From positions 1 to 64,000 of IMG/VR virus record IMGVR_UViG_3300012347_000338: DNA of 64,000 bases, one strand, 5' to 3'. Positions 44,601-63,662 of this stretch are shown here, in pieces. The stretch's first letter is position 1. Every line of letters starts with the position of its first letter. The notes under the pieces were generated by a model. The model was not told the origin of the DNA, did no database searches, and worked only from the letters and a program-made list of their open reading frames with translations. The stretch comes from a virus. Lineage: Duplodnaviria; Heunggongvirae; Uroviricota; Caudoviricetes. The translations under genes were made by a program, and so were the position numbers.

Positions 44601-47426
44601 TGTCCAGCCCTTCTCGTAGTTGGCCAGATAGCCTTCGCGGGCGGCCTCTTCCGAGGTGAAGCCCATCATGACTTTGTGCTCGTCGAATGAGCCGTCTTGC
44701 TTCAGCTGGTCAATGACGAAAATCTTGTTGGTGTCGGGGCGTGGGCCGATGAAGACGTCAACCTTGTCGCCATCTGCGCCGCTAGTGCGCTCAATGTCAC
44801 CGTAGTGGTGAACCATCGTCGACTCCCACACGACGCCATCTGGAGACGTGCCTGTGCGGGTTGATCCCTCTGGGTTCTCAATCTTGATCTTGACGCCATT
44901 GAGGTCAAGGATGTCGCCCTTCTTGTATCGGTCGGCGGCCGTGGCGCGCGGACCTGGGATCTTGAGGTCGTTCTTGGGGCTTGTTGCGGCGGTGTGCGCC
45001 TTTGCGTCGACGTGATCTTTGATCGCTTTGCGAGCCAGCTGCGAGTCGGCCATGCCGGTCAGCTTGAAGCGCTGGCCGGTCTTGCTGTTGATCAGGAGGA
45101 ACTCGGAGCCGTTGCGCTCAACGGACTCAAAGCCCATCTCTACGAGCTGCTTGATCTCAGCTGCGCGCTTACGGATGAACGCAGGCGTCTTGCCTTCTGG
45201 GATCTTCACGCTTGGCGCATCAACGTCCGTCAGGAAGTCGGATTCCTGAATAGCGCCTGTTGCCGGGTTAACAAATTGTTGGCCTACAGGCGCGGCTTTG
45301 TTCTCGGGGGTCTGGGTGAGGCTGGCCGCTGGGGTTGCGAGCGCAGGCGTGGTCTGGCCACTGGCCTGGCCTTGTGGCGCTTGGTAGCGACCGACGATGC
45401 CCTTGGCTTCAGCTGCCGCTTCTTGGCGCGTGCGCATGGGCAACTGCTTGTTGCCTGCGTCGCCCAGCAAGCGAGAGATGTTCTCGCGATCCGCATCGGA
45501 GATGAGGCGGCTGATCTGGTCATCGCGCAAGGCGGCAACCACGGCGTCAACGGAAGGCGCCTCGTTGTTCACGGCCGGAGCGACAGAGCGCTCCATGGCT
45601 GCCGGCGTCTCGATGTTGTCCATCGGCTCGGCTGGGCGCTTGTTCTGCTTGGCCCATGCGAGGAGCTCTTCAACAGCAGACAGGGCTTCTTGACGTACCT
45701 CAAGCGGTGCATTCAGGCTGCGTGCGGCATTCAAGTCATCAAAGACTTGGGCTGCGTTCACGCCGTCTTCGCGCAGGGTGTCCAGCAAGCCTGAGCCGCG
45801 GAACTCTGATTCGATCTGGCGAACGCGCTCGCCCATTGCATCCGTGGCAGGCAGTTGCTTCTGCTCAGCAGCGGGCGCAGCTGGGGCTGCGGTCAGTGTG
45901 GGGGCGATGCCGGTGTTGTCAGGGGTGGTGGCAGCGGCGGCAGCTTGAGCGATGACGCCAGCGTTGCCAGCGACCGCAGCTTTGGACAGTGGGCTGTTGC
46001 CCTCTTTGGCCTTGTCGATGACGGGCTGCAAAGCGGGCGGAGCCTTGGGTGCTGCGGGCATACCGCGATCCAGCGCACCAAAGGCAGCGCCACCAGGTGC
46101 GGATGCGAGTGCTTCACCAGCGGCTTGGCCAGCGACACCTTGGAATGTGGGAACGTCAAAGCCTTCGTTTTGAAGTGCGACGTTGCTTGTGTAGCGCTCT
46201 TGGCCGCCTTGGAATCCCTCGACAGGAGCTTCCTTGACGACGCCCATGGCTGCACGACCAGCGATGCCGCGAGTCGTTTCTTGACCAGCCTTCTTGCCAG
46301 CCAAACGGGCGGCAGCGGATTCAACGCCAGATGTGCCAGCGACTGCGCCGATCAAAGCGGAGGCCGCAATGTTGCCGCCGTTCTGGCCGTCATAGGCTTG
46401 GGCACCGGCTGCCACCTTGGCTGCGACATCAGGGCTCTCGCCTTGGTCGATCAGCTTCTGCATGACAGCTTCGTAGATGGAGCCCTTGGCAGCGCCTGCG
46501 CCTTGAGCAGCGCCCATGGCGCCCTGCATGATTAGACGTGCAGCACCAGCTTGGCCAAGGCCAGGGATGACGCCCATTAGGATCGTAGGCGCACTTGTGC
46601 CCAACGCATTCAGCGTGGTCTCAACGGGGGCTTCAGCGAAAGCGCCAGCGTTGGCGACGATTTCGTTCCAAGTGCTGCCAGAGGCTTCGGCGTCTTTGAT
46701 TGCAAACGAACGCTCAGTGCGTTGGTCTTTGCGGTATTGGGATTGAGAGTCGGTCAGTGTCTTGGCGACAGCGTCTGCACCGCGTGCAACCGGGTTGTCG
46801 GCACCGAAGGCGCCAGCCAGCATGCCAACGCCTTGCACCACACCAGCGCCAGCGCCGAGTGCGACGTCAGCCACGGCTTCACCCGTGGTGCGGTCTTTGA
46901 CCAAAGGGCGCGCGTTGGAGTAGCTGCCAACTTCTTGTTGCTGCGTGCGACCGGCGCGACCCATGATTGCAGGCACGTAGGCTTGCGTTTCAGCTGGCAG
47001 GTAGCGCAGCCAAGCGCTAGGGTTGCCCGCTTTCTCGGCGCGAGCAATGGCGGAATCGACCGCACCAGGCCCAGCGTTGTAGGCGGCCAGCGCCTTTGCA
47101 GGATCTTCGTACGTCTCGTACTGCTTCTTTAGGTACGCCTTGCCAAGGAGTGAGTTGTACTCACCGTCGGTGCGGTACTTGGTGTCATCAAACTCAACGC
47201 CGGCCAGTTTTGCTGCTTCTGGCGCTGTGCCAGGCATAACCTGCCACTTGCCGATTGCACCCTTTTTGCTTGTGACAGGCGTGCCGTCTGGGCGCAGCTG
47301 CTTCCCACCAGACTCGCGATTCTCGAGGGCGGACCCAATGGTTGAAACAAAGGAGTCCGCATCAGTTGCTGCAGGCGCAGCATCAGGAGCGAGATTCAGG
47401 AGTAGTGAAAAGTCTTGTTGAGCCAT
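35640..47426 (-). CDS. giant multidomain virion/ejection protein (3928 aa)
   Basis: N-terminal SLT lytic transglycosylase (ES...AYNAG), HELFH zincin motif about aa 1167, two PARP-like HGS/Y/E repeats, hydrophobic C-terminus. Confidence 0.9.
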   Translation of the reverse strand: MAQQDFSLLLNLAPDAAPAATDADSFVSTIGSALENRESGGKQLRPDGTPVTSKKGAIGKWQVMPGTAPEAAKLAGVEFDDTKYRTDGEYNSLLGKAYLKKQYETYEDPAKALAAYNAGPGAVDSAIARAEKAGNPSAWLRYLPAETQAYVPAIMGRAGRTQQQEVGSYSNARPLVKDRTTGEAVADVALGAGAGVVQGVGMLAGAFGADNPVARGADAVAKTLTDSQSQYRKDQRTERSFAIKDAEASGSTWNEIVANAGAFAEAPVETTLNALGTSAPTILMGVIPGLGQAGAARLIMQGAMGAAQGAGAAKGSIYEAVMQKLIDQGESPDVAAKVAAGAQAYDGQNGGNIAASALIGAVAGTSGVESAAARLAGKKAGQETTRGIAGRAAMGVVKEAPVEGFQGGQERYTSNVALQNEGFDVPTFQGVAGQAAGEALASAPGGAAFGALDRGMPAAPKAPPALQPVIDKAKEGNSPLSKAAVAGNAGVIAQAAAAATTPDNTGIAPTLTAAPAAPAAEQKQLPATDAMGERVRQIESEFRGSGLLDTLREDGVNAAQVFDDLNAARSLNAPLEVRQEALSAVEELLAWAKQNKRPAEPMDNIETPAAMERSVAPAVNNEAPSVDAVVAALRDDQISRLISDADRENISRLLGDAGNKQLPMRTRQEAAAEAKGIVGRYQAPQGQASGQTTPALATPAASLTQTPENKAAPVGQQFVNPATGAIQESDFLTDVDAPSVKIPEGKTPAFIRKRAAEIKQLVEMGFESVERNGSEFLLINSKTGQRFKLTGMADSQLARKAIKDHVDAKAHTAATSPKNDLKIPGPRATAADRYKKGDILDLNGVKIKIENPEGSTRTGTSPDGVVWESTMVHHYGDIERTSGADGDKVDVFIGPRPDTNKIFVIDQLKQDGSFDEHKVMMGFTSEEAAREGYLANYEKGWTGLGAITEMGVDEFKSWVKSPAAKKPVADTQDKPAAKVAEKAAAAPEKAVDLEEKPDAANDAPPTSFSTYAEAKSYIVAQRRNGSDLSALPYPNEDGTFGIAVKGTPGYTKAEKYAADQQKKAKKAKKPAAKKGESFTIKDGDKNVELQKVAKSDLPNESSSIARGGNERQLTQSDASLLERLASALGKQIQIFSGDGGDGFVRPDDPGTIYINESTSINPLAIFGHELFHQIKRENPQAWKSIAKVVKANISQAAYDQMVEVGYKKSQALEEIVSDLGGDFLSDGAFWRDVFAQIEADHGKDAKGIIAKLVAYLNNLVEQLINDIKQPGFNAASLVKDVRAVRAAYKEGITQYLKDSSLTRPALQAQILREEQGVKKSLARAGDPQAQYDAVVAKYKDTAEWLKAPNGSDSNLSERQWVQVRTPAFKKWFGDWEKFAKLPGGVWNDDKGAVSKVVDNNGEPMVVYHGSSKGGFSEFKTPGGTKRGDLGIFTTPNLEMAKSYVSRRGGEIQYADMEPEAIEGGDQPGYYANFVNIRNPLESDFEGAHWNGERPGRYQVMNQDGELQRDQNGKAYFDMFDDANEFAKTVEDGEVQPADEHYETTDSVVREARSDDNDGAIIRNVVDSGSGAYTNYIDEASDVFVALDPSQIKSATQNTGEFGTGTADMRFSRKRDQIKQANEFAKENGILPYVSSGAQAVPVSIQKSIKREGKYGNHPVLGIPVNANGTVTLYYPTTNADARRIVRERSLKGTGERVYLTNESGVANVMAKRGNIEQKIDGANVLLQINPDLLQIDTEHEDGRKDFFVQITEGSEFRKKMSQVKLFTQNAPRDKGLSEKTTINDITSGITDAIEEMAGLNFAGRRARVKEARLALKAKHNVGTLLSVNGKLEKTNVGGYGLDYDGKDVMSMGLGLASAQKINDEQKLTTCPQSAICQSLCLGETSGQNLLYGGEGQFKSGPRMSQYLKTEAMVQSPEDFATVLFAEIDRFARNAKRDDYQATVRLNVTSDFPPKVFEALIKAFPDVMFYDYTKLNNKVIAENHHLTYSSTGASQIVDGKTIVNPESNWDAMVTKLNRGSNVAMAFTDKNEMPAFVIDGKTGQKFQVWNGDNYDARFLDPKREDGIGMIVGLTNKDRTTKPEEAAVKHKGFFVDYNPARDGDTVVIQDQEALASGKKVIPIKVMKFSRKRNLGENFERWSRGAPLIELGDPHDFMPGEPVVVEALHGSTNADITEFKRSRANVESDWGAGFYASNTPEDVATNYANVNGPDLTARIERETERLADSMEFDDELASTLISEYLKDTGSKEKVTEDTLDDLKEEYVGVAADHAARKRHSEGAPNTMKLFMRMLNPVVIGNNETRLDYSEEYNEETDDYEEPTGKLVEFTGAIRDIAPDYGVRDEDIETAIGKIFEQGIDGDMKVSDVSNIIKQDFVDAFDDDGNSASHEIVRRALSDIGFDGIIDTTVSEKFGPKVVRNGQTYDRTGGMKGMSEDTVHFIAFEPTQIKSATGNDGGFDPTDPDIRKSRKRDEKSESKFPNTPEFSRFRRPEFYSQLQRAIEGVPERLATMSAPAWKQWIEANAAKLGVKKDEVEWSGIKDYLDLQGKAKLAKGDVAAYLAESGVNVQDVMKGDIKNFDAMSDEQLRKEYARIRGYEAEAYGEPMDREEILDELEGMLDEDGDDTKYGKYVLPGGENYRELLITLPTKNTVAGISPAQAARVLYNKEYANLTPEQQADVKRRIADEDSSPAYMSSHWSEANILAHIRVNDRTDADGNRVLFVEEVQSDWGQEGLKSGFAESMGDMPNMSADELLRKHEHSMTESQREYLQDFSERWDNADSDEEIDDLTNEYQQWIPQQRLKGLPKAPFITKTEGWLNLALKRIAMMAVDGGYDKVAFVNGQQSADRYDMAKQVDAIRVNLNPDGTYQLGVQPIGMRMQRHDTSVPANKLSDMIGKELAEKAIAEVTEAGVDGGKVYSGLDLKVGGEGMTKFYDQILPQNLSKLLPKLGGEKAGAVDAGNAAEIERIALTAKIRNLPFESKERAALTKELHALEQGYSPLEQLGFDVTDKMRETVSGGVPLFSRARKPWFEDINSIKLASGYQVGDFITSSKKVTWWDKSVGTMYNLAEKHPEFKRVFDAVQRFIDDVSVYANKAADLAPNILPKLESWKDIAKTPMSAEDVAALRDPIFQGTLSFSRDENGDLQPEDDVEKAGVVFSNQELRDYFQLDDRQIALYREFRAAVNQSITTLNASDMLRYLGEDGDAIRDQVMAAKTVKQSERIISAHLDLLIEQQPGRAEVLTNTKEVISEKVGQAIGLMARGYAPLSRYGEFTVYVVGKDGEQQYFSMFESQAEANKMAREMREQYPDSEVTTGTMSKESYKLFSGVTPESLALFGEALGLEENGVDEKSQAYQQYLKLAKSNRSAMKRLIQRKGIDGFSEDAGRVLAGFVYSNARQVSTNLHAGEIGKAAAAVKSGDLKDMAIKLMNYIQNPQEEAQAIRGLMFAQFIGGSIASALVNMTQPFTMTMPYLSQFVGATGAAARMADAVKLVSKGIKDDDELAKALKRAEADGVVSPQEVHQLMAQSQGKGALKSGDGTKSGDALAKANNTLAKISLGWGKLFGTAEQFNRRVTFIAAYKVARDQKMADPFAFAENAIRETQGVYNKGNKPAWARGAVGATLFTFKQYSIAYVEFLQRMWGNGPEGKKAVGMALLVLFAVSGLGGMPGADDLDDVIDGIAQRVFNKSFDSKQAKKEFLSGFVGDGFADFLMGGITSIPGSPIDLSGRMGLGNLVPGTGFFTKKSSYTRDLAEIGGPAFSMAANWLVAGGQVAQGDIAKAAKTVSPQAAQNLIKASDMWTMGMYRDEKGRKVVDVDAWEGVVKAIGFQPASVKKIQEATSTQQNLIGQNKLRETEIADLWTAGRVERDQDKIAKAKEQIAQWNKDNPQSKIEIDPKQIDKRVQKANQSKAQRIAATAPKEIRGSVTKELDYLNR

Positions 47427-54905: not shown

Positions 54906-56228
54906 TCAGAGAATGCGGGCTGGGACGGATGCGTCGAGCTCATCCTCGTTGCGGTAGTAGAACTTGCCGCCAGACACAGCGAAGTCGGCCACGCTGATGT
55001 AGTCAAAGGCTGTGGAACGAGTCTGTGTGTCGAGGTTGATCAGCGCGAAGCCGTTGTGCCACTTCTCGCCTTCGCAATAAGACGCAGAGCGTTTGTGGCC
55101 AGAGCCGAGTTGGTGCCATTCGTAGGCGCCGTAGACTGGGTTGAATTCGCTCCAGACGATGTGCTTGTGATGGTGGCCATTAACGCCCGGGAGGCCCATG
55201 TTGCGCGCATGCGGGAAGTGATGGCAGAGGACTGTGTCCCAATAGATCTTGTAATTGGTCGCGAGCTCTTTGTTGAAGTCGCGCTTGGTGAATGATCCAA
55301 GGTCAGCCTTTGCGATGTAGTTGATTTCGAACTGGTCAAGACCAAACAGCTTGGCCACGGTGAAGCCGTGCAGGTCGCTTAGGACCGCTCGCAGTGCAGG
55401 AGTTGCATCAGCAAGTTGACGGAGCAGGCGGGCTTCGTGATTCCCTTCGATGAAGTCAATCTGGACATCAGGGCAGGCGTCACGTAAAGGTCCGAGAATG
55501 TTGTCGTGCGCGAACCGGATGCGGCCGACGACGTCCCATTCGCGTGGGTCCACTCCGTACTTGCCGAACTCGGGGAGATCGAAAATGTCTCCAACAAGAG
55601 AGATGACATCAGGCTGGACTCGTCGTGCTGTGTCGATGAGGACGCGCAGGTAGAAGGGGTCGATCTCAATGTCATGCAGGTCCGATGCAACGAGGATGGT
55701 CTTGAAGCGCTTGCCGTTCTCGCGCAGATACTTGGTGTCCCAGTCCTGGCGGTCGATGTTCATGCGGCGGTAGTGATCCACCGAAGCATGCTTCGCGATG
55801 TGTCGCTCGTGCTGGTGCTGCTGGCGCGACAACGTGATGTTGGCCTGGCGCTTGAACTCTTCGAACGTGCCGAAGTAGCGGTTCCAAGTCGACTCGGAGA
55901 TCTGGCTGTGAGTGCGGAAGTAGTTGCGCGTGACGACCTTGTCTTCGTCGATCTTGGCAATGCGGCGTAGCTCGGCGATGCACTCCTCTGGGCCCCAGTG
56001 CTCCATGAACCGTGACTGGTCTTCCGACATGGGCACCGCAGCGGCTTCTCGGATTGAGTGCTGAGGCGCATCCCATGTTGGGAGCTTGATGTCGTACTTT
56101 GATTCGATGCTTGCGCGTCGCGAGTAGACGCTGCGGATGTTGACGCCCAGGGCTTGCGCCACTTTGTTTGGACTACCGAGTTTTTTGAAGAGCTCCATGA
56201 ACTCGACGTCTGAACAAACTGCTGCCAT
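54906..56228 (-). CDS. calcineurin-like metallophosphoesterase with N-terminal HTH
   Basis: ILVASDLHD, VGDIFD, GNHE, GHHH motifs; internal ATG 56228 downstream of terminator. Confidence 0.6.
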   Translation of the reverse strand: MAAVCSDVEFMELFKKLGSPNKVAQALGVNIRSVYSRRASIESKYDIKLPTWDAPQHSIREAAAVPMSEDQSRFMEHWGPEECIAELRRIAKIDEDKVVTRNYFRTHSQISESTWNRYFGTFEEFKRQANITLSRQQHQHERHIAKHASVDHYRRMNIDRQDWDTKYLRENGKRFKTILVASDLHDIEIDPFYLRVLIDTARRVQPDVISLVGDIFDLPEFGKYGVDPREWDVVGRIRFAHDNILGPLRDACPDVQIDFIEGNHEARLLRQLADATPALRAVLSDLHGFTVAKLFGLDQFEINYIAKADLGSFTKRDFNKELATNYKIYWDTVLCHHFPHARNMGLPGVNGHHHKHIVWSEFNPVYGAYEWHQLGSGHKRSASYCEGEKWHNGFALINLDTQTRSTAFDYISVADFAVSGGKFYYRNEDELDASVPARIL

Positions 56229-56301: not shown

Positions 56302-56496
56302 TTAGGCCTGAGCGGGCTTGGCTGCTTCCTCGGCAGCTTTCTGTGCTGCACTCTCGGCTTCCAGTTGCGCATTGAACTGCTCAGAGGCCTGAGCGCGCAC
56401 ACGGTTGGCGACTTGAGCGGCGTTGTCTTGAATGCGACCGAGGCCTTCAAGAATCGTGTTGACGTCGGAAACTTCGACTGTGAGTTGGATTGACAT
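56302..56496 (-). CDS. small coiled-coil protein (64 aa)
   Basis: ATG 56496 after GGAG; followed by terminator. Confidence 0.4.
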   Translation of the reverse strand: MSIQLTVEVSDVNTILEGLGRIQDNAAQVANRVRAQASEQFNAQLEAESAAQKAAEEAAKPAQA

Positions 56497-56572: not shown

Positions 56573-57205
56573 TTACGCCAGATGTGCCGAAGGATCGAAC
56601 ACGCCCAGAGCCAACTCCGTGTGGTGCACGCGGTCTGCAAAGCCTAGCTGGCCACCGTTAATGACCTGGGTCAGCTTCACCCAGTTCTGAGCTTCTGCGA
56701 GCTCATTGCAGCCATGGGTCTTCCAGAACCAGCCAGCGGTCTGCATCGCGTATTCAGGCGTGCGCACCAGGTCTGGGTTCTTCATGAAGTCCACGCCGAG
56801 GGCCTTGCCGGCATGGAAGAAATTCGCCGCGCCGGTCAATTGCAAATATCCAGATCCGCGGTACAGCCAGCCGTCACCGGACTTCTCGTCGCGGTTGTTC
56901 ATTCGACCGCCGTAGATGCGCGATGCGATGCGCTCTGGGTGGCCTTCGTAGGCCTTGGCCTCTTCGACCGATGCGAAGCCCCACTTACGCTTTGGCGTCA
57001 GCGGGAACATCTTGAAGAGCGTGGCGCCGCGGTAGCGCAGGTCTTCCTCGAGCACCGTGAAGTTGCGTGACTCATGGCCACACTGGGCGATGAACGCGGC
57101 TTGCTTCTTGGGTGTGTCGATGTCCCAGCGCAGGAACGTCGCGTTGAGCGGCGCGGCCAGGAGCGGGTTGATCTTCAGCTGTTTGAGTTGATCAGTGGTC
57201 ACCAT
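56573..57205 (-). CDS. endolysin, glycoside hydrolase family 19
   Basis: GHESRNF...YRGSGYLQLTG GH19 catalytic blocks. Confidence 0.85.
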   Translation of the reverse strand: MVTTDQLKQLKINPLLAAPLNATFLRWDIDTPKKQAAFIAQCGHESRNFTVLEEDLRYRGATLFKMFPLTPKRKWGFASVEEAKAYEGHPERIASRIYGGRMNNRDEKSGDGWLYRGSGYLQLTGAANFFHAGKALGVDFMKNPDLVRTPEYAMQTAGWFWKTHGCNELAEAQNWVKLTQVINGGQLGFADRVHHTELALGVFDPSAHLA

Positions 57206-57662
57206 TTACTTGGCTCCTGACTTGGTTGTAGGCGTCGACGCAGGCGTTGAGTTGGACGATGGCTCGGTCTCCGTCGGCTGCGATTTGAGCAATAAGTCGG
57301 AGAGTCTCTCGGTCAGATTCGCTTCCATCTTGTTGATTCCCGCCGGCAGCGGGGGCACTTGGACTGGCTTGTACGCAACGGGCGGCGGGGAGGCGCACCC
57401 TGCCAGCACTGATAGCGCGATCCAGAGCAGACTGTTTTTGAGTGATTGAATCATTGGCTGTCTTCAGTTCGATTGATGTTTGGTTGAGCTCCTCGCTGAG
57501 CTTCTGCTCCCGCTGGCGAGACTCCTCGTTCTTGATGCTGATCTCGGCTTGCATCTCCAGATCTCGCTGCACAAAACCGGCATGGTGGCCGTAGAAATAT
57601 GCAGTTAAGACGGCACACAGCGCCCCGAGAATGATCCACGGGTTCCTGAGTAGGGCCAGCAT
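57192..57662 (-). CDS. i-spanin (Rz-like)
   Basis: N-terminal TM + coiled coil; position after holin. Confidence 0.65.
   Translation of the reverse strand: MLALLRNPWIILGALCAVLTAYFYGHHAGFVQRDLEMQAEISIKNEESRQREQKLSEELNQTSIELKTANDSITQKQSALDRAISAGRVRLPAARCVQASPSAPAAGGNQQDGSESDRETLRLIAQIAADGDRAIVQLNACVDAYNQVRSQVNGDH
57206..57454 (-). CDS. o-spanin (Rz1-like) embedded in +1 frame of Rz
   Basis: lipobox LAGC, Pro-rich mature region, fully embedded. Confidence 0.6.
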   Translation of the reverse strand: MIQSLKNSLLWIALSVLAGCASPPPVAYKPVQVPPLPAGINKMEANLTERLSDLLLKSQPTETEPSSNSTPASTPTTKSGAK

Positions 57663-57664
57663 CG

Positions 57665-58213
57665 TTAGCCTCGCTGCTCGGCGCGTGCATGGGCTAGCGC
57701 TTCACGCTCGTCTTCGTCTTCCATGTGGCCGGCTGGTGTGGTCGGTGGAGGTGGAGGCGTCCAGTTCTCATCAAACTGTGGATTCGTCCAGCCCATCCAG
57801 TTGAAGTCGGGCATGGCCGAGCTCGCAGCTGGCGCTGGTGTAGTCACAGGCGCTACAGGCGCAGCAGCGGGCGCACAAGGCGCTGGCGTTGGCGTTCCTA
57901 CCAACGTGCCAGACACCTTCGCTGAGATCGCTTCTGAGGCCTTCTTGGCCACGCGCATGCCGATCAGAGTCGTGATTGACCCGGTCATCAGCAGGACGAT
58001 GTCGTTGAGCATCTTCGTGTAGGCCATGTCAATCGGAGCCATGGTCTTCATGGGCTGGCCAACGAAGGTCACGGAATAGAGCATGGTGAACACCAGGCCG
58101 CCAAACACGAGCATGACGATGCCGACCACGAAGGCCCAGACCATCACCTCGCAGAAGGCGATTAGCTCATCAGTTGTTTGGAACAGTGCTCGAGGCGGGT
58201 TGAGTGGGTTCAA
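57665..58213 (-). CDS. putative holin
   Basis: 2-3 TM helices then Pro/Ala-rich tail; start may be internal ATG 58144. Confidence 0.5.
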   Translation of the reverse strand: MNPLNPPRALFQTTDELIAFCEVMVWAFVVGIVMLVFGGLVFTMLYSVTFVGQPMKTMAPIDMAYTKMLNDIVLLMTGSITTLIGMRVAKKASEAISAKVSGTLVGTPTPAPCAPAAAPVAPVTTPAPAASSAMPDFNWMGWTNPQFDENWTPPPPPTTPAGHMEDEDEREALAHARAEQRG

Positions 58214-58671: not shown

Positions 58672-59309
58672 CGGCGCGCCTCGTCGTCTTTTTGTTTTTT
58701 CTTGCGCACTAGGCGTTCGAACTCTTGTTCTTCGATGATCTTTCCGTACATCTGCAGGAAGCGGCTGTAGATGTCTTTGAGCTCGGATGGCGCGTAGACC
58801 ATGGCCTCGCGGATCTGCACGGTCATGTTCTCAAGCTGTAGCTCGATCTCAACGCGGTCAATGGCGCTGCTCTCGATGTTGTCGGTGTCCTTGGACTCCT
58901 CCTCGAGCTCGTGGCAGTGAGCCTTGAGCGTGCGGCGGATCTCGAAGAAGGTCTTCAGCTGCTCGCACACCTGGTGGATGGCGCGGGTCTGGTATTCCTC
59001 GTAGCTGAGCTCGGGTTCCGGCGCTGGCTTCTTTTTGGTCGGCTTGACGGAAACCGGTTGTGGAGCGGCTGGGCTCTGCAACGCTGGTTGTGGAGCGGGA
59101 GCGGCTTTTGGCGCTCCACTAATCAAGCCTTTGAACCAGCCCCACAGGCCGGTGATCTCTTTGTAGACCGCCTTGGCGTCTCCGATGCCCTGCTCTACCG
59201 TCTTCTTCAGCGCCCCGATTTCAGCCTTGCCCTGAGAGAGCATCTCGCAACCCTTGCGGACCGCGGCAACAGCGGCCTGAGCCGCCATGAGTAGGCTTAT
59301 AGGGTCCAC
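58503..59309 (-). CDS. coiled-coil protein with C-terminal TM helix
   Basis: 268 aa; good codon usage to stop. Confidence 0.5.
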   Translation of the reverse strand: MDPISLLMAAQAAVAAVRKGCEMLSQGKAEIGALKKTVEQGIGDAKAVYKEITGLWGWFKGLISGAPKAAPAPQPALQSPAAPQPVSVKPTKKKPAPEPELSYEEYQTRAIHQVCEQLKTFFEIRRTLKAHCHELEEESKDTDNIESSAIDRVEIELQLENMTVQIREAMVYAPSELKDIYSRFLQMYGKIIEEQEFERLVRKKKQKDDEARRWLLRDRRIEMAVEITATVLLVLLVAAIAADLHSQSTARSNFWRVSSSTWPSQYLS

Positions 59310-59315
59310 ACAGCG

Positions 59316-59480
59316 TTATGCCTCGTCGGCTGGCTCGGGTGTGTTGCCCTCTTCCAGCCACTTTAGGTAGACCTGGTAGTCCGTATTGGCTGGGTCAAAC
59401 GGTATGAAGGCGTCGTCTGCAATGCGCTTGATGCAAGCAGGCTCTTGGCCCTCAAACGATAGTCGTATTTGTTGGTACAT
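59316..59480 (-). CDS. conserved small protein paired with tail fibre C (54 aa)
   Basis: [36 protein letters not shown]; GGAG RBS inside fibre stop region. Confidence 0.55.
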
Positions 59481-59482
59481 GG

Positions 59483-60553
59483 TTAAAGCTCCGCTGATGC
59501 TTTGTATGAAAAATCGCGCGGCTGCGCAATAGTCCCGCCGGCATCTGATGTTGCTACATAATAATCAACATAAAAACTGCGAGTGCCGCCTGAACCTATG
59601 GTTTTTGACACTATTGCATCGTAGCGGATGTTTGGCTTATGCAAGTCCGTTTCTGTTGTTGTTACAGTCGGAGCGGTTCGCATAGGAACAGGTAAATCGA
59701 CATACATATAGTAGTCTCGCGCAACTGTTGACCCTCCGATAATTGCCTTATACATAAGACTTGGAACTTCATAGACAAAATACCGCTGGCACAAAGCCAA
59801 TTCGACGCTGTAAGGCCTGAACTCAAATGGCGTGGCCACGGAGCCGGCTTCAACTTGCACGCCAGTCACGTACAGGTAGTTGCCAACAGTACCCAGCAGC
59901 GATGTACCGCCAGTCACGTTGGTGTAATTGCCCGCGCCCCATGAGCCTGCGGTTGTGGAGATTGTTGAGCCTTGGCCAAAGCCGAGCGTCAAGAACATGC
60001 CAACGCCGTTGTCCGAGTACCAAGTGCCAGTCGTGTCGCCAGGGATGGTGACCGTCTTGTATTCCCAGGTGTTGGCCGCGTTGATTGTGTAGCTGAAGAC
60101 GCAAGAGCGGTTGGCTGCACCGTTGCGCAGCGAGCCGCCAAATGTACCTATGTTTGAGCTGCGCACCCAAAAGCTCAGCGTGACTGGCGACGCACCAACT
60201 GCGCCGAATCCAAAGTCAGCGACGTTGAATCCTTCGATGGCCTGGCCAACAGAGAACGAATCGCCAGAGCCAACGGTGGCCGTGGCTGCAACAGTGACTC
60301 CGAGATACTTTTTGAATCCAGCCGGAGGTGTAACTGCGCCAGCGTTTTGTTGAACCGTGATCTTGCTCGCTTGGGATGCGTAGGCCCAGAATCGATCAAG
60401 AACGTACGTCACATTGGACGTGTCGGTGATTGACTTACTTGCGCCACTAAAGCGTTGATCAATTCGGCAGTCACCGTTGATGATGCGGTTGCGGAACATC
60501 AGCCCGCCAGACGCCACTGCGCCTAAATTTGCAAGGTCTCTTGCTTTTGTCAT
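59483..60553 (-). CDS. tail fibre paralog C
   Basis: shares N-terminal [13 protein letters not shown] and C-terminal [25 protein letters not shown] with two paralogs. Confidence 0.65.
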
Positions 60554-60564
60554 TGGTACTCCAG

Positions 60565-60597
60565 AAAAACAAAAACCCGCCGAAGCGGGTCATATAT
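60565..60597 (-). terminator. intrinsic terminator (ACCCGC-TTCG-GCGGGT + UUUUUGUUUUU)
   Basis: read directly on minus strand between small ORF B and fibre C. Confidence 0.55.
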
Positions 60598-60608
60598 GCG
60601 TGTGGCGA

Positions 60609-60770
60609 TTACTCGTCAGCTGGGAGGGGTGTGTTGCCTTCGGCGAGCCAGGCTAGGTATTCCTGGTAGTCAGTGTTGGCCTCGTCGAAGGGGATGAAGG
60701 CGTTGTCGGCCAGGCGCTTTACGTAATTAGCTTTGATGCCGGTCGGCGAATCTTGAATTGCTTGATACAT
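60609..60770 (-). CDS. conserved small protein paired with tail fibre B (53 aa)
   Basis: [37 protein letters not shown]. Confidence 0.55.
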
Positions 60771-62063
60771 TTAAAGCTCCGAACTTGCGCTAAAGTTGAT
60801 ATATGCCAAAGCGTACGGGTAGTTTGTGTAGCTATTGATTGTCAACGTAAAACAAAACGAATCACCCGAGTCTTGGCCGCCCGTTGCGTAAATGCCAGCA
60901 TTACTCGCGTTGTCGATGTTGTTGAAGCCGTTCATTGTCATCGTCGGGCTCGCTCGCTTGACTTGCTTAAATGAGTAGGAGCCAGTTCCGGTGTTGGTGT
61001 ACGCGCCCAAAGCGTAAGTACCGTTCACGAAAACCTTCGGATTACCACGCTCAAAGTACCGCTGACAAAGCGCCAACTCGGCCCCGTACGGGCGGAAGTC
61101 AAACGGCGTTGCGTAGGAGCCTTTTTCAAGCTGGACGCCGGTGATGTTGAACGTGGCGCCAGTGGTGGCGCACACCTTTGTTCCGCCTGTAAGGCCATAC
61201 CGTGTGGATGTGCCCCAAACAGTATCGGCAGCGGCGCTGTAGCTTGTGCCGCAGCCCATGTCCCAGCAAACGCCAAGGCCAATGCCGTTGTCAACGCGCC
61301 AAGTTCCGTCGGTGCAGCCTGGAATGACAATTGTTTTTTGCTCCCAGGTATTTGCCTGGGTAATTGTGTACGATGTCGTGTAGCGGCGGTCTTGCCCATC
61401 ATTGAGCACAGTGAGGCCGAATGTGCCGGTAAGCGAGGAGCGCGCCCAAAATGAGATCGTAACCGGAGCGGCGGCAGATGTTCCCCAGTTCAGGTCTGAG
61501 GTGTTCAGACCCTCAACTCGATGAATGACGAGCCCAATGTCTCCAGCGCCCACAGCGCCTGTTCCGGTCTGCGTGTATTGAAGCGACTTAGAAAAGCCGG
61601 ACGGCGCGACGCTTGACTGCGATACCGTGCACGCATTGGTGGCGGAGTAGGCAGCAAAGCGGTCAACGCTAAAGCCTCGTGTGCCGCCGCCGTTGACAGT
61701 GGTGGATGCGCCATACTGGGCCACACTCATAGCGCCGTTGATCACCCGATTGCGCATAGCCCAGCCACCAGCACCGACAATGCTGTTGATCTCACCGCGG
61801 CGCATAGTGTCAATGAGAGACACAGGCCAGTAAGCCTTGGTGCGGAACAAGCTGCCAGCGCCAGCCTTCTGGGCGAGCACAACGCTCAAGCCGTCAGTGG
61901 CTGTGAAGTCTTGGCTGCCGAGATCCGAGCCGTCGAGCTCGACGTCAATGTAGCCTGGCAGGTAGCCACCGTCCGGATAGAAGATGGTCTGGTCTTGCTG
62001 GGCGATTCGCTCAGTGACTGTGCGGACTGTTTGTCCGAATGGTGGGACGCCTACGTAGGACAT
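60771..62063 (-). CDS. tail fibre paralog B
   Basis: conserved N/C termini with A and C; variable centre. Confidence 0.65.
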   Translation of the reverse strand: MSYVGVPPFGQTVRTVTERIAQQDQTIFYPDGGYLPGYIDVELDGSDLGSQDFTATDGLSVVLAQKAGAGSLFRTKAYWPVSLIDTMRRGEINSIVGAGGWAMRNRVINGAMSVAQYGASTTVNGGGTRGFSVDRFAAYSATNACTVSQSSVAPSGFSKSLQYTQTGTGAVGAGDIGLVIHRVEGLNTSDLNWGTSAAAPVTISFWARSSLTGTFGLTVLNDGQDRRYTTSYTITQANTWEQKTIVIPGCTDGTWRVDNGIGLGVCWDMGCGTSYSAAADTVWGTSTRYGLTGGTKVCATTGATFNITGVQLEKGSYATPFDFRPYGAELALCQRYFERGNPKVFVNGTYALGAYTNTGTGSYSFKQVKRASPTMTMNGFNNIDNASNAGIYATGGQDSGDSFCFTLTINSYTNYPYALAYINFSASSEL

Positions 62064-62069
62064 TCATTC

Positions 62070-62100
62070 TCCAATGAAAAAAGCCCGCCGTAGCGAGCTT
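62070..62100 (-). terminator. intrinsic terminator (GCUCGC-UACG-GCGGGC + U6)
   Basis: read directly. Confidence 0.5.
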
Positions 62101-62118
62101 TCTGGGTGTTGCTGGGTG

Positions 62119-62289
62119 TTACTCGCCTACAGGGGCGTCTGCTGGCTCTGGCGTATTGCCTTCTTCCAGCCATTTCAAATAGGCTTGGTAGTCTGTGTTG
62201 GCGGGGTCGAAGGGGATAAATGCGTTGTCTGCAATACGCTTTACGCAGGCTGCTGCAGCCATGACTGCGCTAGGTTGTAGTTTGTACAT
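62119..62289 (-). CDS. conserved small protein paired with tail fibre A (56 aa)
   Basis: [37 protein letters not shown]. Confidence 0.55.
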   Translation of the reverse strand: MYKLQPSAVMAAAACVKRIADNAFIPFDPANTDYQAYLKWLEEGNTPEPADAPVGE

Positions 62290-62291
62290 CG

Positions 62292-63329
62292 TTAAAGCTC
62301 CGCAGATGCTGTGATTTTGTCGTCAGAAGTATTGGGGTGATACTGGACAAGAGTCTGGCCAGACCCTTGTGTAAGAATGGAGAACCCCTGCTCACTAATA
62401 AAACGAGGCGTAAGAGAAGTCCAGCCGCTTCCTCCCCAGGCACCAACGAGGCTCACCGTGGGCGCGGCTCTCTTTGTCACCTTAAAAACCATTAGCGTGT
62501 CTGTTGTCCCGCTAGCGTCTGCAGCCCAAGTTGTTACCAATGGAAATACGTTTGAGCTGCCGCCAATGACTTCGTAATACCGCTGACACAAAGCCAACTC
62601 AGCACCGTAATGACGAAACTCAAATGGAGTGGCTTGTGAGCCTTTTTCTAGCTGAACACCAGTGATGTAAAGTGTTGCACCATTTGTTGACATCAGTTGA
62701 ACTGAGCCAGTCAAGTTGTAATTATTTGCAGACAGCCATGCGTTCGTCACGGATGTTGCATTGACAGAGCCTCCTAGCGACCACTCAAGAATGAGTGCAT
62801 AGCTGTTTGCTGTGTTAATGCTCCCGCTTGTTTCGCCGGGGATTGTGATTGTTTTGTATTCCCAAGTATTTGCAGCACTGATGTTGTATGTTGTCAGGTA
62901 TGAGCGAGCACCGCCTGTTGTGCGCAAGATAAAAGGAAAGTTCCCGGTGACGCTTGATTTTACCCAAAAGGAAATAGTGATAGGTTTTGCGTTGGCAGTG
63001 CCATACCCAAAGTCTGCGCAGTTATAGCCCTCAATGTACTGGACAATCCCGCTTTCTCCGGGGATTCCGGCAGACGTGATAGTGGCCACCATTGAGCTTG
63101 AGAAGCCGACTGGCGCGTCTGACGATTGTTGAAGCGTCCATGTGCCGCCAGCACCACTGTTGTAGGCGCGCCATCTGTCACAAGCAAATGCTGACGTGGA
63201 GGAGATAACCAAAGCTCCAGCATTGCGCTGGTCAATTCGCATATCTCCGTTGATGATGCGATTGCGCATCCCGAGCTCAGCGCCCGAGTTACCCAGTGCG
63301 GGCGTTTGAATTCTGCTCAGTGATGGCAT
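62292..63329 (-). CDS. tail fibre paralog A
   Basis: conserved N/C termini. Confidence 0.65.
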   Translation of the reverse strand: MPSLSRIQTPALGNSGAELGMRNRIINGDMRIDQRNAGALVISSTSAFACDRWRAYNSGAGGTWTLQQSSDAPVGFSSSMVATITSAGIPGESGIVQYIEGYNCADFGYGTANAKPITISFWVKSSVTGNFPFILRTTGGARSYLTTYNISAANTWEYKTITIPGETSGSINTANSYALILEWSLGGSVNATSVTNAWLSANNYNLTGSVQLMSTNGATLYITGVQLEKGSQATPFEFRHYGAELALCQRYYEVIGGSSNVFPLVTTWAADASGTTDTLMVFKVTKRAAPTVSLVGAWGGSGWTSLTPRFISEQGFSILTQGSGQTLVQYHPNTSDDKITASAEL

Positions 63330-63337
63330 GTGTTCTT

Positions 63338-63372
63338 TCTAAAACAAAAAGCCCTCCGAAGAGGGCTTGGTT
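63338..63372 (-). terminator. intrinsic terminator (GCCCTC-TTCG-GAGGGC + UUUUUGUUUU)
   Basis: identical stem to 56265 terminator. Confidence 0.55.
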
Positions 63373-63386
63373 TTGTGTGGGGTGGC

Positions 63387-63662
63387 TTACTGAGCGGCGG
63401 CGCGTTCGGCCATCTCGGCTGCACGTGCGGCCTGCTCTGCCTGGTAGGCGGCGATGACTTCGGGCGTATGAACGGCAGCGCAGATTGCGATGACCTTGGG
63501 GTCCATGTCCTGCGTTGCTTGGCCGGGCGCTATTACAAAGCGATGGAAGTTCTGGGCGATGACTTCGCCGTCACGGAGAACGCGCAGTGCTTCGCGCACT
63601 TGAACACTGTTGTTCTCCAACACTTCAATTTTGTCGATGACTTTGGTTTCTGAGAGAGACAT
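63387..63662 (-). CDS. hypothetical protein
   Basis: 91-aa ORF upstream of fibre cassettes. Confidence 0.45.
   Translation of the reverse strand: MSLSETKVIDKIEVLENNSVQVREALRVLRDGEVIAQNFHRFVIAPGQATQDMDPKVIAICAAVHTPEVIAAYQAEQAARAAEMAERAAAQ

Follow-up and report, generated by a model that had tools for sequence, protein, structure and literature searches.

Small accessory proteins such as the T4 gp57A and gp38 types are needed for, or attached to, phage fiber tips. Of these, gp57A is a single general chaperone that is encoded apart from the fibers and not in one copy per fiber. A different arrangement is found for TfaMu/Mu U, Pam3 gp25 and the DUF4376 chaperones, which are encoded immediately downstream of a fiber gene. 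In TfaMu and Pam3 gp25 the N-terminal domain binds the distal part of the fiber and the C-terminal domain drives multimerization, according to the published model (PMC7882524, citing North et al. 2019; PMC9608196). DUF4376 proteins were shown experimentally to be required fiber chaperones in the case of Alteromonas phage proteins V22 gp27 and A5 gp9 (PMC10579305), and DUF4376 is also present in the experimentally required H-fiber chaperone of Campylobacter CJIE1 (PMC7882524). Here we describe three tandem tail-fiber genes, each directly followed by a gene for a protein of about 55 aa, in a 64,000-nucleotide stretch of a Caudoviricetes genome (IMG/VR record IMGVR_UViG_3300012347_000338, positions 1 to 64,000; hereafter the window). 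Fiber and small gene recur together in many phages, and comparison with the systems above leads us to favor, on balance, a role of the small protein as a reduced fiber chaperone or cap.

The three fiber/small-gene pairs are all located on the minus strand and encode fibers of 345, 430 and 356 aa and small proteins of 53-56 aa. Read 5' to 3' on that strand, the gene order is a fiber-like open reading frame (ORF), a 91-aa gene, hairpin 1, fiber A with small gene a, hairpin 2, fiber B with small gene b, hairpin 3, fiber C with small gene c, a 268-aa ORF and an apparent lysis cassette. An earlier note on this DNA had called the six ORFs of the cassettes, and all six were confirmed at its coordinates, on the minus strand. 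It had also proposed that a conserved gene of about 55 aa follows each fiber and that the small proteins share a sequence motif. Both points hold, since the small proteins are 69-75% identical, carry the motif in all three cases and are separated from their fibers by gaps of 2, 0 and 2 nt. The cassette genes are as follows.

62292..63329, minus strand: fiber A, 345 aa; N-terminal peptide of ~20 aa, carbohydrate-binding module (CBM) 4/22-type jelly roll (~aa 22-240), helix ELALCQRYY, variable β-sandwich C-terminal domain, terminal ASAEL
62119..62289, minus strand: small gene a, 56 aa, acidic; three β-strands and one helix predicted; phrog_20370 with E 3e-14; AF2 pLDDT 77
60771..62063, minus strand: fiber B, 430 aa; architecture as fiber A plus an N-terminal extension of ~100 aa; C-terminus SSEL; phrog_4492 with E 5e-52
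60609..60770, minus strand: small gene b, 53 aa; identical to P0002, a called gene on an 80,257-bp JGI contig
59483..60553, minus strand: fiber C, 356 aa; architecture as fiber A with a short N-terminus; C-terminus ASAEL; phrog_4492 with E 4e-47
59316..59480, minus strand: small gene c, 54 aa; exact match to P0001, called on the 80,257-bp JGI contig that also carries P0002

Fiber A is likewise an exact match to a gene called on that JGI contig. The junctions between the fibers and the small genes have the following structure.

62287..62303, minus strand: junction A/a, GCG GAG CTT TAA CG ATG; GGAG inside the Ala-Glu codons of the fiber, stop 2 nt before the ATG
60768..60782, minus strand: junction B/b, TCG GAG CTT TAA ATG; stop and start adjacent
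59478..59494, minus strand: junction C/c, GCG GAG CTT TAA CC ATG

The junctions were compared over 90 cases. The fiber C-terminus is S/T-A/S-E-L with the E-L invariant in 78/78 unique pairs, the stop codon is TAA in 80 of the 90 junctions, and the ATG follows the stop after 0-3 nt in most of them. In this tail Ser is encoded by TCN and AGT and Leu by TTA, CTT, CTA and CTG, and since these are different codon families the fiber tail is conserved as protein. The codons preceding the Leu are biased. The junction Ala is GCG in 89% of cases vs 15.5% in fiber bodies (p 5e-46) and the junction Glu is GAG in 86% vs 37% (p 3e-21). Together the GCG GAG codons spell GGAG 6-9 nt before the small-gene ATG, while in loci with GCA GAA the spacer is widened to 11 nt and has its own GGAG inside. 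This bias and spacing show that the GGAG ribosome-binding site embedded in the last fiber codons (GCG/TCG GAG CTT TAA, 0-2 nt before the ATG), which the earlier note had pointed out, is real and under selection, and they imply translational coupling. The use of the last fiber codons as ribosome-binding site of the partner is a clear overlap of coding and translational constraints that is conserved across unrelated phage lineages. Fusion of fiber and small ORF by stop-codon read-through or frameshifting was ruled out as a mechanism by the variety of the gaps (0, 1, 2 and 3 nt), which fit no single frame relation.

The small proteins belong to a large family. They match phrog_20370 (E 3e-14 to 9e-14, over positions 3-48 of the 148-position profile) and phrog_34019 (E 2e-7 to 9e-6), and searches of Pfam and NCBIfam gave no hit and of the PDB no sequence match. 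The statement that the family is not a recognized one can thus be kept in part: both PHROGs are listed with 'unknown function', but the family is on record as PHROG 20370/34019 and a divergent GenBank member, Melnitz_178, is labeled 'tail assembly chaperone'. A word-indexed search returned at least 8,000 candidates, and an exhaustive HMMER search over 1.84 billion representatives yielded 5,028 clusters (50% identity) at E <=1e-3, of which 912 reach E <=1e-10. Members are mostly 50-60 aa long; a metagenomic protein of 109 aa (P0242) contains three tandem copies of the small domain in one polypeptide. No paper on the family was found in literature searches, and a protein-database search with a 123-aa form from a Pseudomonas putida phage gave the self-match alone. 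The AF2 model of the small protein (pLDDT 77) has three short strands and one helix, and its Foldseek neighbors in BFVD are all uncharacterized viral homologs.

Substitution patterns indicate that the peptide itself is maintained. In a 32-codon core aligned across 90 sequences, the proportion of synonymous differences (pS) was 0.75, which is saturated, and the proportion of nonsynonymous differences (pN) was 0.17, giving a pN/pS of 0.23. Among small genes a, b and c the pS was 0.55-0.90 and the pN 0.03-0.17. Because synonymous sites are near saturation while pN is low, the small genes are real, old and under purifying selection, and are neither chance ORFs nor recent duplicates. By this measure the three cassettes are old, independently diverged modules.

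The occurrence of the pair in other phages was examined in a synteny sample of 80 IMG/VR loci and four other loci. Where a small-gene homolog has an ORF of 100 aa or more upstream of it, the gene immediately before it is a homolog detected with the fiber hidden Markov model in 84 of 86 cases, mostly at a gap of 0-3 nt. The homologs outside this pairing are artefacts of ORF-start calling or contig ends. Two or three cassettes occur in tandem in 16 of the 80 IMG/VR loci. The same adjacency is present in 13 annotated or inspected loci from T7-like, T4-like, P2-like, SU10-like and HMO-2011-type phages and from metagenomes. It was seen in MW202481, P. putida phage Kaagvere, Prochlorococcus phage P-TIM68, a SU10-like contig, Synechococcus phage S-SRM01, a Mediterranean uvMED phage and Ralstonia phage YO033_1. 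In the P2-like Acidovorax phage Alfacinha1 the small-gene homolog occupies the slot of the P2 fiber chaperone gene. Phages HMO-2011, HTVC100P, WH11-B and Melnitz, which were missed by tblastn, have a divergent small homolog after a fiber ending in SAEL, DSEL, NAEI or EAEL; these homologs have the motif (V/I)P.D..N..Y in common, and the one of Melnitz is annotated 'tail assembly chaperone'.

By this distribution, fiber plus small gene is a widespread module of podo- and myophages of very different hosts, which include cyanobacteria, SAR11/SAR116, methylotrophs, Pseudomonas, Ralstonia and Acidovorax. The window cassettes are ordinary members of this extremely common, unnamed module, and what is new is the recognition of the module and of its relation to Tfa chaperones. 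In Melnitz (L097 2734-3857) a second pair lies beside the CBM-fiber pair and consists of a 272-aa protein followed by a 102-aa 'tail assembly chaperone' with a C-terminal Phage_tail_APC-like motif, W..YR..LRD...WP. Both chaperone types are therefore adjacent in one phage.

The relation to tail-fiber assembly chaperones emerged from longer members of the family, in which the small domain is followed by a Pro-rich linker and then an extension at the C-terminus. The extensions were assigned by Pfam, in four cases above the gathering threshold. Two of these extensions are DUF4376, that of P0385 (E 9e-19) and that of the Ralstonia phage YO033_1 protein (E 5e-11). Phage_tail_APC (PF16778), a 60-aa C-terminal domain, is joined to the small domain in P0384 (E 1e-15) and P0311 (E 2e-13) and, weakly, in the 123-aa P. 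putida Autographiviridae protein; the window small proteins end before such a domain. Two of the four long forms, P0385 and P0384, were checked in their contigs and lie directly after CBM-type fibers ending in SIEL or QSEL, and the long form of YO033_1 is preceded by a fiber of the same type that ends in ARL, not E-L. Alignment of the small-protein profile with the long forms of YO033_1 and Alfacinha1 by hhalign gave a probability of 97.7-98%. The small domain is thus a homolog of the N-terminal domain of proteins that contain DUF4376 or APC, including DUF4376 proteins that sit after the same fiber type.

The window proteins share with the Tfa-type chaperones a gene position directly downstream of the fiber gene that would be served, and they lack the conserved C-terminal DUF4376 or Caudo_TAP domain (PF14301 / PF02413). 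Their likeness to the N-terminal domains of TfaMu and Pam3 gp25 is one of position and domain architecture and not of established homology. In the known two-domain chaperones the N-terminal domain is variable, whereas the corresponding domain in the window is highly conserved. Furthermore, the clients of known Tfa-type proteins have an intertwined β-helical or TNF-like fiber tip, whereas the window proteins would serve a CBM jelly-roll protein. With the T4 gp57A/gp38-type proteins no relation in sequence or fold was found. The suggestion that each fiber has a dedicated chaperone or adaptor is well supported, from comparative evidence, by the pairing of fiber and small gene and by the fusions to DUF4376 and Phage_tail_APC.

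The fibers match PHROG 4492 'tail fiber protein' over the C-terminal part of the profile (E ~1e-47 to 1e-54), and the core has a CBM4/22-type carbohydrate-binding jelly-roll fold. Sequence searches with the fibers identified no Pfam or NCBIfam family and no PDB relative. By tblastn, homologs annotated as tail fibers were found in T7-like and T4-like cyanophages, in Methylophilales, Pelagibacter and Puniceispirillum phages, in P. putida Autographiviridae and in Ralstonia, Acidovorax, Stenotrophomonas and Rhizobium phages. Longer relatives carry the CBM-type unit as the distal end of a fiber with an N-terminal anchor, e.g. the T7 tail-fiber N-domain in P. putida phages, whereas fibers A and C have just ~20 aa ahead of the CBM. 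Described CBM-bearing receptor-binding proteins (CBA120 TSP4, Pa193 gp46, Kp7 gp52 and the phi812 CBM-cenC protein) and bacterial CBM4/CBM22 modules have 10-19% sequence identity to the window fibers. Compared by description only, none of these is mentioned to have an ...AEL terminus or a coupled small gene.

Pairwise identity among fibers A, B and C is 42-44% overall. It reaches 47-49% in the core from RNRIING to CQRY, drops to 18-24% in the ~90 aa between CQRY and ASAEL, and rises again over the final residues, ...(A/S)SAEL or SSEL. The residues before the core, ~20 aa in A and C and ~100 aa in B, are also divergent. The variable part is therefore C-terminal and not central. This reverses the earlier description of a divergent center acting as the swapped receptor-binding part, since the center is the better conserved region and divergence is found at the C-terminal side and at the N-termini. 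Fiber B departs from the proposed N-terminal motif RNR.ING..RIDQR (MRNRVINGAMSVAQY), and ITGVQLE...CQRY, which had been taken as C-terminal, lies about two-thirds along the fiber. Divergence of the CBM core was not correlated with that of the C-terminal domain of the fibers (Mantel r 0.03, n = 78; IMG/VR loci L005-L084). This lack of co-variation suggests that recombination is frequent at the ELALCQRY helix, which would make it a possible domain-swap joint. A modular system of multiple receptor-binding proteins, as proposed before, fits both the tandem cassettes and a variable C-terminal domain that does not co-vary with the rest of the fiber.

Taking these results together, we think it somewhat more probable than its alternatives combined that each cassette encodes a receptor-binding protein and a minimal, translationally coupled fiber-binding chaperone or cap, one per fiber, and that the hairpins are most likely leaky terminators or stabilizers. 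The receptor-binding protein would consist of the CBM4/22-type jelly-roll core, a short helix, a hypervariable β-sandwich of ~90 aa and the near-invariant C-terminal A/S-E-L. The 53-56-aa protein would represent the free-standing N-terminal domain of a two-domain Tfa-type chaperone, i.e. the fiber-binding half alone. Since the ribosome-binding site lies in the last two fiber codons and the ATG 0-3 nt after the stop, the same ribosomes would make the small protein beside the just-released fiber C-terminus, probably in about equal amounts. The small protein would then bind a conserved fiber surface and assist folding or oligomerization, or stay as a cap. Conservation of the small core far exceeds that of the fiber variable domain (normalized similarity 0.76 vs 0.10), and the core shows no co-variation with the fiber domains. 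It probably contacts a conserved surface, for which the C-terminal tail, the ELALCQRY helix and the R287/P290 motif are candidates. The three cassettes would probably give the virion three sugar-binding specificities.

Several observations weigh against this proposal. Mirror-tree and Mantel analysis of the small protein versus the fiber variable domain or the CBM revealed no co-variation (r ~0, n = 78), which is unusual for a cognate chaperone and leaves unexplained why one copy is kept per fiber. The terminal E-L and the conserved R287/P290 may simply be part of the structure of the C-terminal domain, with no docking role. All AF2 models are of monomers, and a Foldseek search of the PDB with the small-protein model gave insignificant chemokine-like hits alone (E at least 0.4), thus no fold match there. 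Using hhalign, no similarity was detected between the small-protein profile and λ Tfa or Mu U, and the window proteins end right after the ~50-aa domain, without the C-terminal multimerization domain that defines Tfa proteins. In view of these last two results we class them as Tfa-like in their presumed action and not as members of the Tfa family. For every member of the family, moreover, we infer chaperone or cap activity from comparison.

The small protein could instead be a permanent structural subunit of the fiber, such as a distal cap or strand-complementing piece present at ~1:1 in the virion, and not a transient helper. Tight translational coupling and one copy per fiber would suit such a role, and the very high conservation across hosts argues for binding to a conserved fiber surface. 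There are also precedents, as TfaMu was reported to remain bound to its fiber (PMC7882524) and the Alteromonas phage chaperones were proposed to act as transient caps (PMC10579305). We nevertheless consider a structural subunit unlikely, if clearly the strongest of the competing explanations, because an acidic, nearly invariant protein of 55 aa is unlikely to be the adhesin itself and because the homologous long forms carry chaperone-type C-terminal domains. Virion proteomics data were looked for and none were found.

The second component of our proposal concerns the hairpins, of which five with the same design are present on the minus strand of the window.

63339..63368, minus strand: hairpin 1 (stem-loop 63368-63349), AAGCCCTC-UUCG-GAGGGCUU followed by UUUUGUUUU; -16 kcal/mol, z -3.7; 19 nt after the stop of the 91-aa gene, stem end 19 nt before the fiber A ATG
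62073..62100, minus strand: hairpin 2 (stem-loop 62100-62081), AAGCUCGC-UACG-GCGGGCUU followed by UUUUCAUU; between small gene a and fiber B; one G-U pair; -17.1 kcal/mol, z -2.9
60563..60591, minus strand: hairpin 3 (stem-loop 60591-60574), GACCCGC-UUCG-GCGGGUU followed by UUUGUUUUU; between small gene b and fiber C
56290-56275, minus strand: hairpin of the same design, after an ORF ending at 56302
35618-35593, minus strand: strong UUCG terminator of the same design, after the 3,928-aa ORF ending at 35640

Each of the five sites consists of a hairpin and U-tract located 11-21 nt after a stop codon, which is the form of an intrinsic terminator. Folding energies of hairpins 1 to 3 were -14 to -17 kcal/mol with z -2.8 to -3.7. 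The hairpins in the fiber region end 14-19 nt before the next start codon, and no hairpin follows cassette C. A window-wide scan for a tetraloop hairpin followed by a T-tract recovered 4/5 of the minus-strand sites and one plus-strand site; the UACG hairpin was missed by the scan and confirmed by folding. The earlier note had described a near-identical TTCG hairpin with U-tract before each cassette. All three do fold, but the middle loop is UACG, the stems are similar and not identical, and the positions were ~10-20 nt off. The two further hairpins of this design that it had listed were found at 56290-56275 and 35618-35593. A C/A-rich stretch precedes each of the four short hairpins on the minus strand (63385-63370, GCCACCCCACAC; 62115-62101, CAACACCCAG; 60605-60592, GCCACACGCA; 56300-56291, GCCACCCAG) and may be a shared upstream element of the terminators or a processing signal.

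The hairpins do not travel with the cassettes. Of 86 other loci, only one has a terminator-like structure in the 90 nt that follow the small gene, vs 4/2,000 random control windows. To judge from these counts, the hairpins are a habit of the window genome and not of the fiber/small-gene module, of which they had been considered a part. No sigma-70-like promoter was found between any hairpin and the next gene. Since no promoter fits between hairpin and start codon, leaky terminators or RNA 3'-end stabilizers are most likely. Leaky hairpins would grade expression along the late operon, from the fibers to the lysis genes, and from their placement such graded read-through or 3'-end stabilization is plausible. 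Efficient termination, with each cassette an independent transcription unit that has its own promoter and no attenuation, appears improbable. The canonical hairpin and U-tract design would agree with it, and two sigma-70-like matches exist inside upstream coding sequence (63696-63667 and 62750-62721), but promoter-like hits are no commoner in the region than in shuffled sequence (2 found vs 3.8 expected). Moreover, the space between a hairpin and the following start codon is just 14-19 nt, the U-tracts are interrupted, the stems are only 7-9 bp, and the lysis genes further down this strand have to be transcribed as well.

Two further explanations of the small gene dispense with fiber assembly. 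The small protein could have an unrelated function, for example as a regulator or host-interaction factor carried along with the fiber genes, in line with the lack of a family annotation or solved homolog and of co-variation with the fiber. We give little credence to this possibility in view of the near-universal adjacency and sharing of the ribosome-binding site with one fiber type across unrelated phage lineages, and of the fusion to fiber-chaperone domains. That the gene serves mainly as DNA, a downstream homology arm marking the cassette boundary for fiber swaps and encoding a peptide with little function, is largely refuted by the selection on the peptide (saturated pS against a low pN), the absence of long identical DNA stretches and the fusion of the small domain to chaperone domains, even if fiber domains appear shuffled in the absence of co-variation between CBM and C-terminal domain, tandem cassettes are common, and two of the three window cassettes have the same junction DNA (GCGGAGCTTTAA), from which the third differs by one base.

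The genes around the three cassettes include a further pair of similar layout and a very large ORF.

63665 to beyond 64000 (past the window end), minus strand: fiber-like ORF; 354 aa in a longer Logan contig (L088); phrog_17970 and a weak match to phrog_18673 'tail fiber'
63387..63662, minus strand: 91-aa gene; phrog_6228 (unknown function); starts 2 nt after the 354-aa fiber-like ORF, directly upstream of hairpin 1
35640-47426, minus strand: 3,928-aa polyvalent protein; SLT transglycosylase (aa 51-133), InPase (829-960), ART-PolyVal ADP-ribosyltransferase (1398-1601), GP88 (1852-2067)

The 354-aa fiber-like ORF and the 91-aa gene (L088 8601-9943) are a fourth pair of fiber plus small gene, from a different and also uncharacterized family. 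At the other end of the array, small gene c ends in ...GAC GAG GCA TAA (window 59288-59320, minus strand), which places a GAGG ~7 nt before the GTG (59309) of the 268-aa ORF and suggests that this ORF is in turn translationally coupled to the last cassette. The 268-aa ORF encodes a coiled coil and a C-terminal hydrophobic segment. The apparent lysis cassette downstream of the fibers (56573-58213, minus strand) comprises a 182-aa membrane protein, a 156-aa ORF, an embedded 82-aa ORF and a 210-aa ORF. The 82-aa ORF inside the 156-aa ORF has a possible lipobox, a spanin-like arrangement, and the 210-aa ORF is endolysin-like by eye; the 182-aa ORF, the only one of the cassette that was scanned, matches a PHROG of unknown function. 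The cassette is followed by a metallophosphoesterase gene (54906-56198, phrog_20266) and the UUCG terminator at 56290-56275.

The head and neck genes of the window phage are SU10-type. A relation to phage N4, considered because of the 3,928-aa ORF, was rejected since this ORF encodes a polyvalent protein and not a virion RNA polymerase; its tblastn matches in unrelated phages are to methyltransferase, DarB-like and NUDIX segments. Near-identity DNA searches of INPHARED with the fiber region and with positions 20001-44000 gave no match, so that the phage has no closely related genome in that collection. Scans of the window against Rfam and for tRNAs were negative.

The CBM-type fibers of this family are among the commonest receptor-binding proteins of environmental phages, including cyanophages, pelagiphages and phages of soil and plant-pathogenic bacteria. 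If they depend on the 55-aa partner, recombinant expression and engineering of these fibers should include it, and a new family marking receptor-binding genes could be added to annotation pipelines. If our proposal of a fiber-binding chaperone or cap is true, the cassettes would offer a minimal model of Tfa-type chaperone action with the fiber-binding half only. More tentatively, and with the odds somewhat against it, the ~55-aa proteins may be new, very abundant single-domain fiber partners that recognize the A/S-E-L tail or a patch around it without an oligomerization domain, a universal 'plug'. In that case hypervariable receptor-binding domains would be swapped freely while a single assembly interface is kept, and the partners would work without the oligomerization domain that is thought to be the conserved core of Tfa chaperones.

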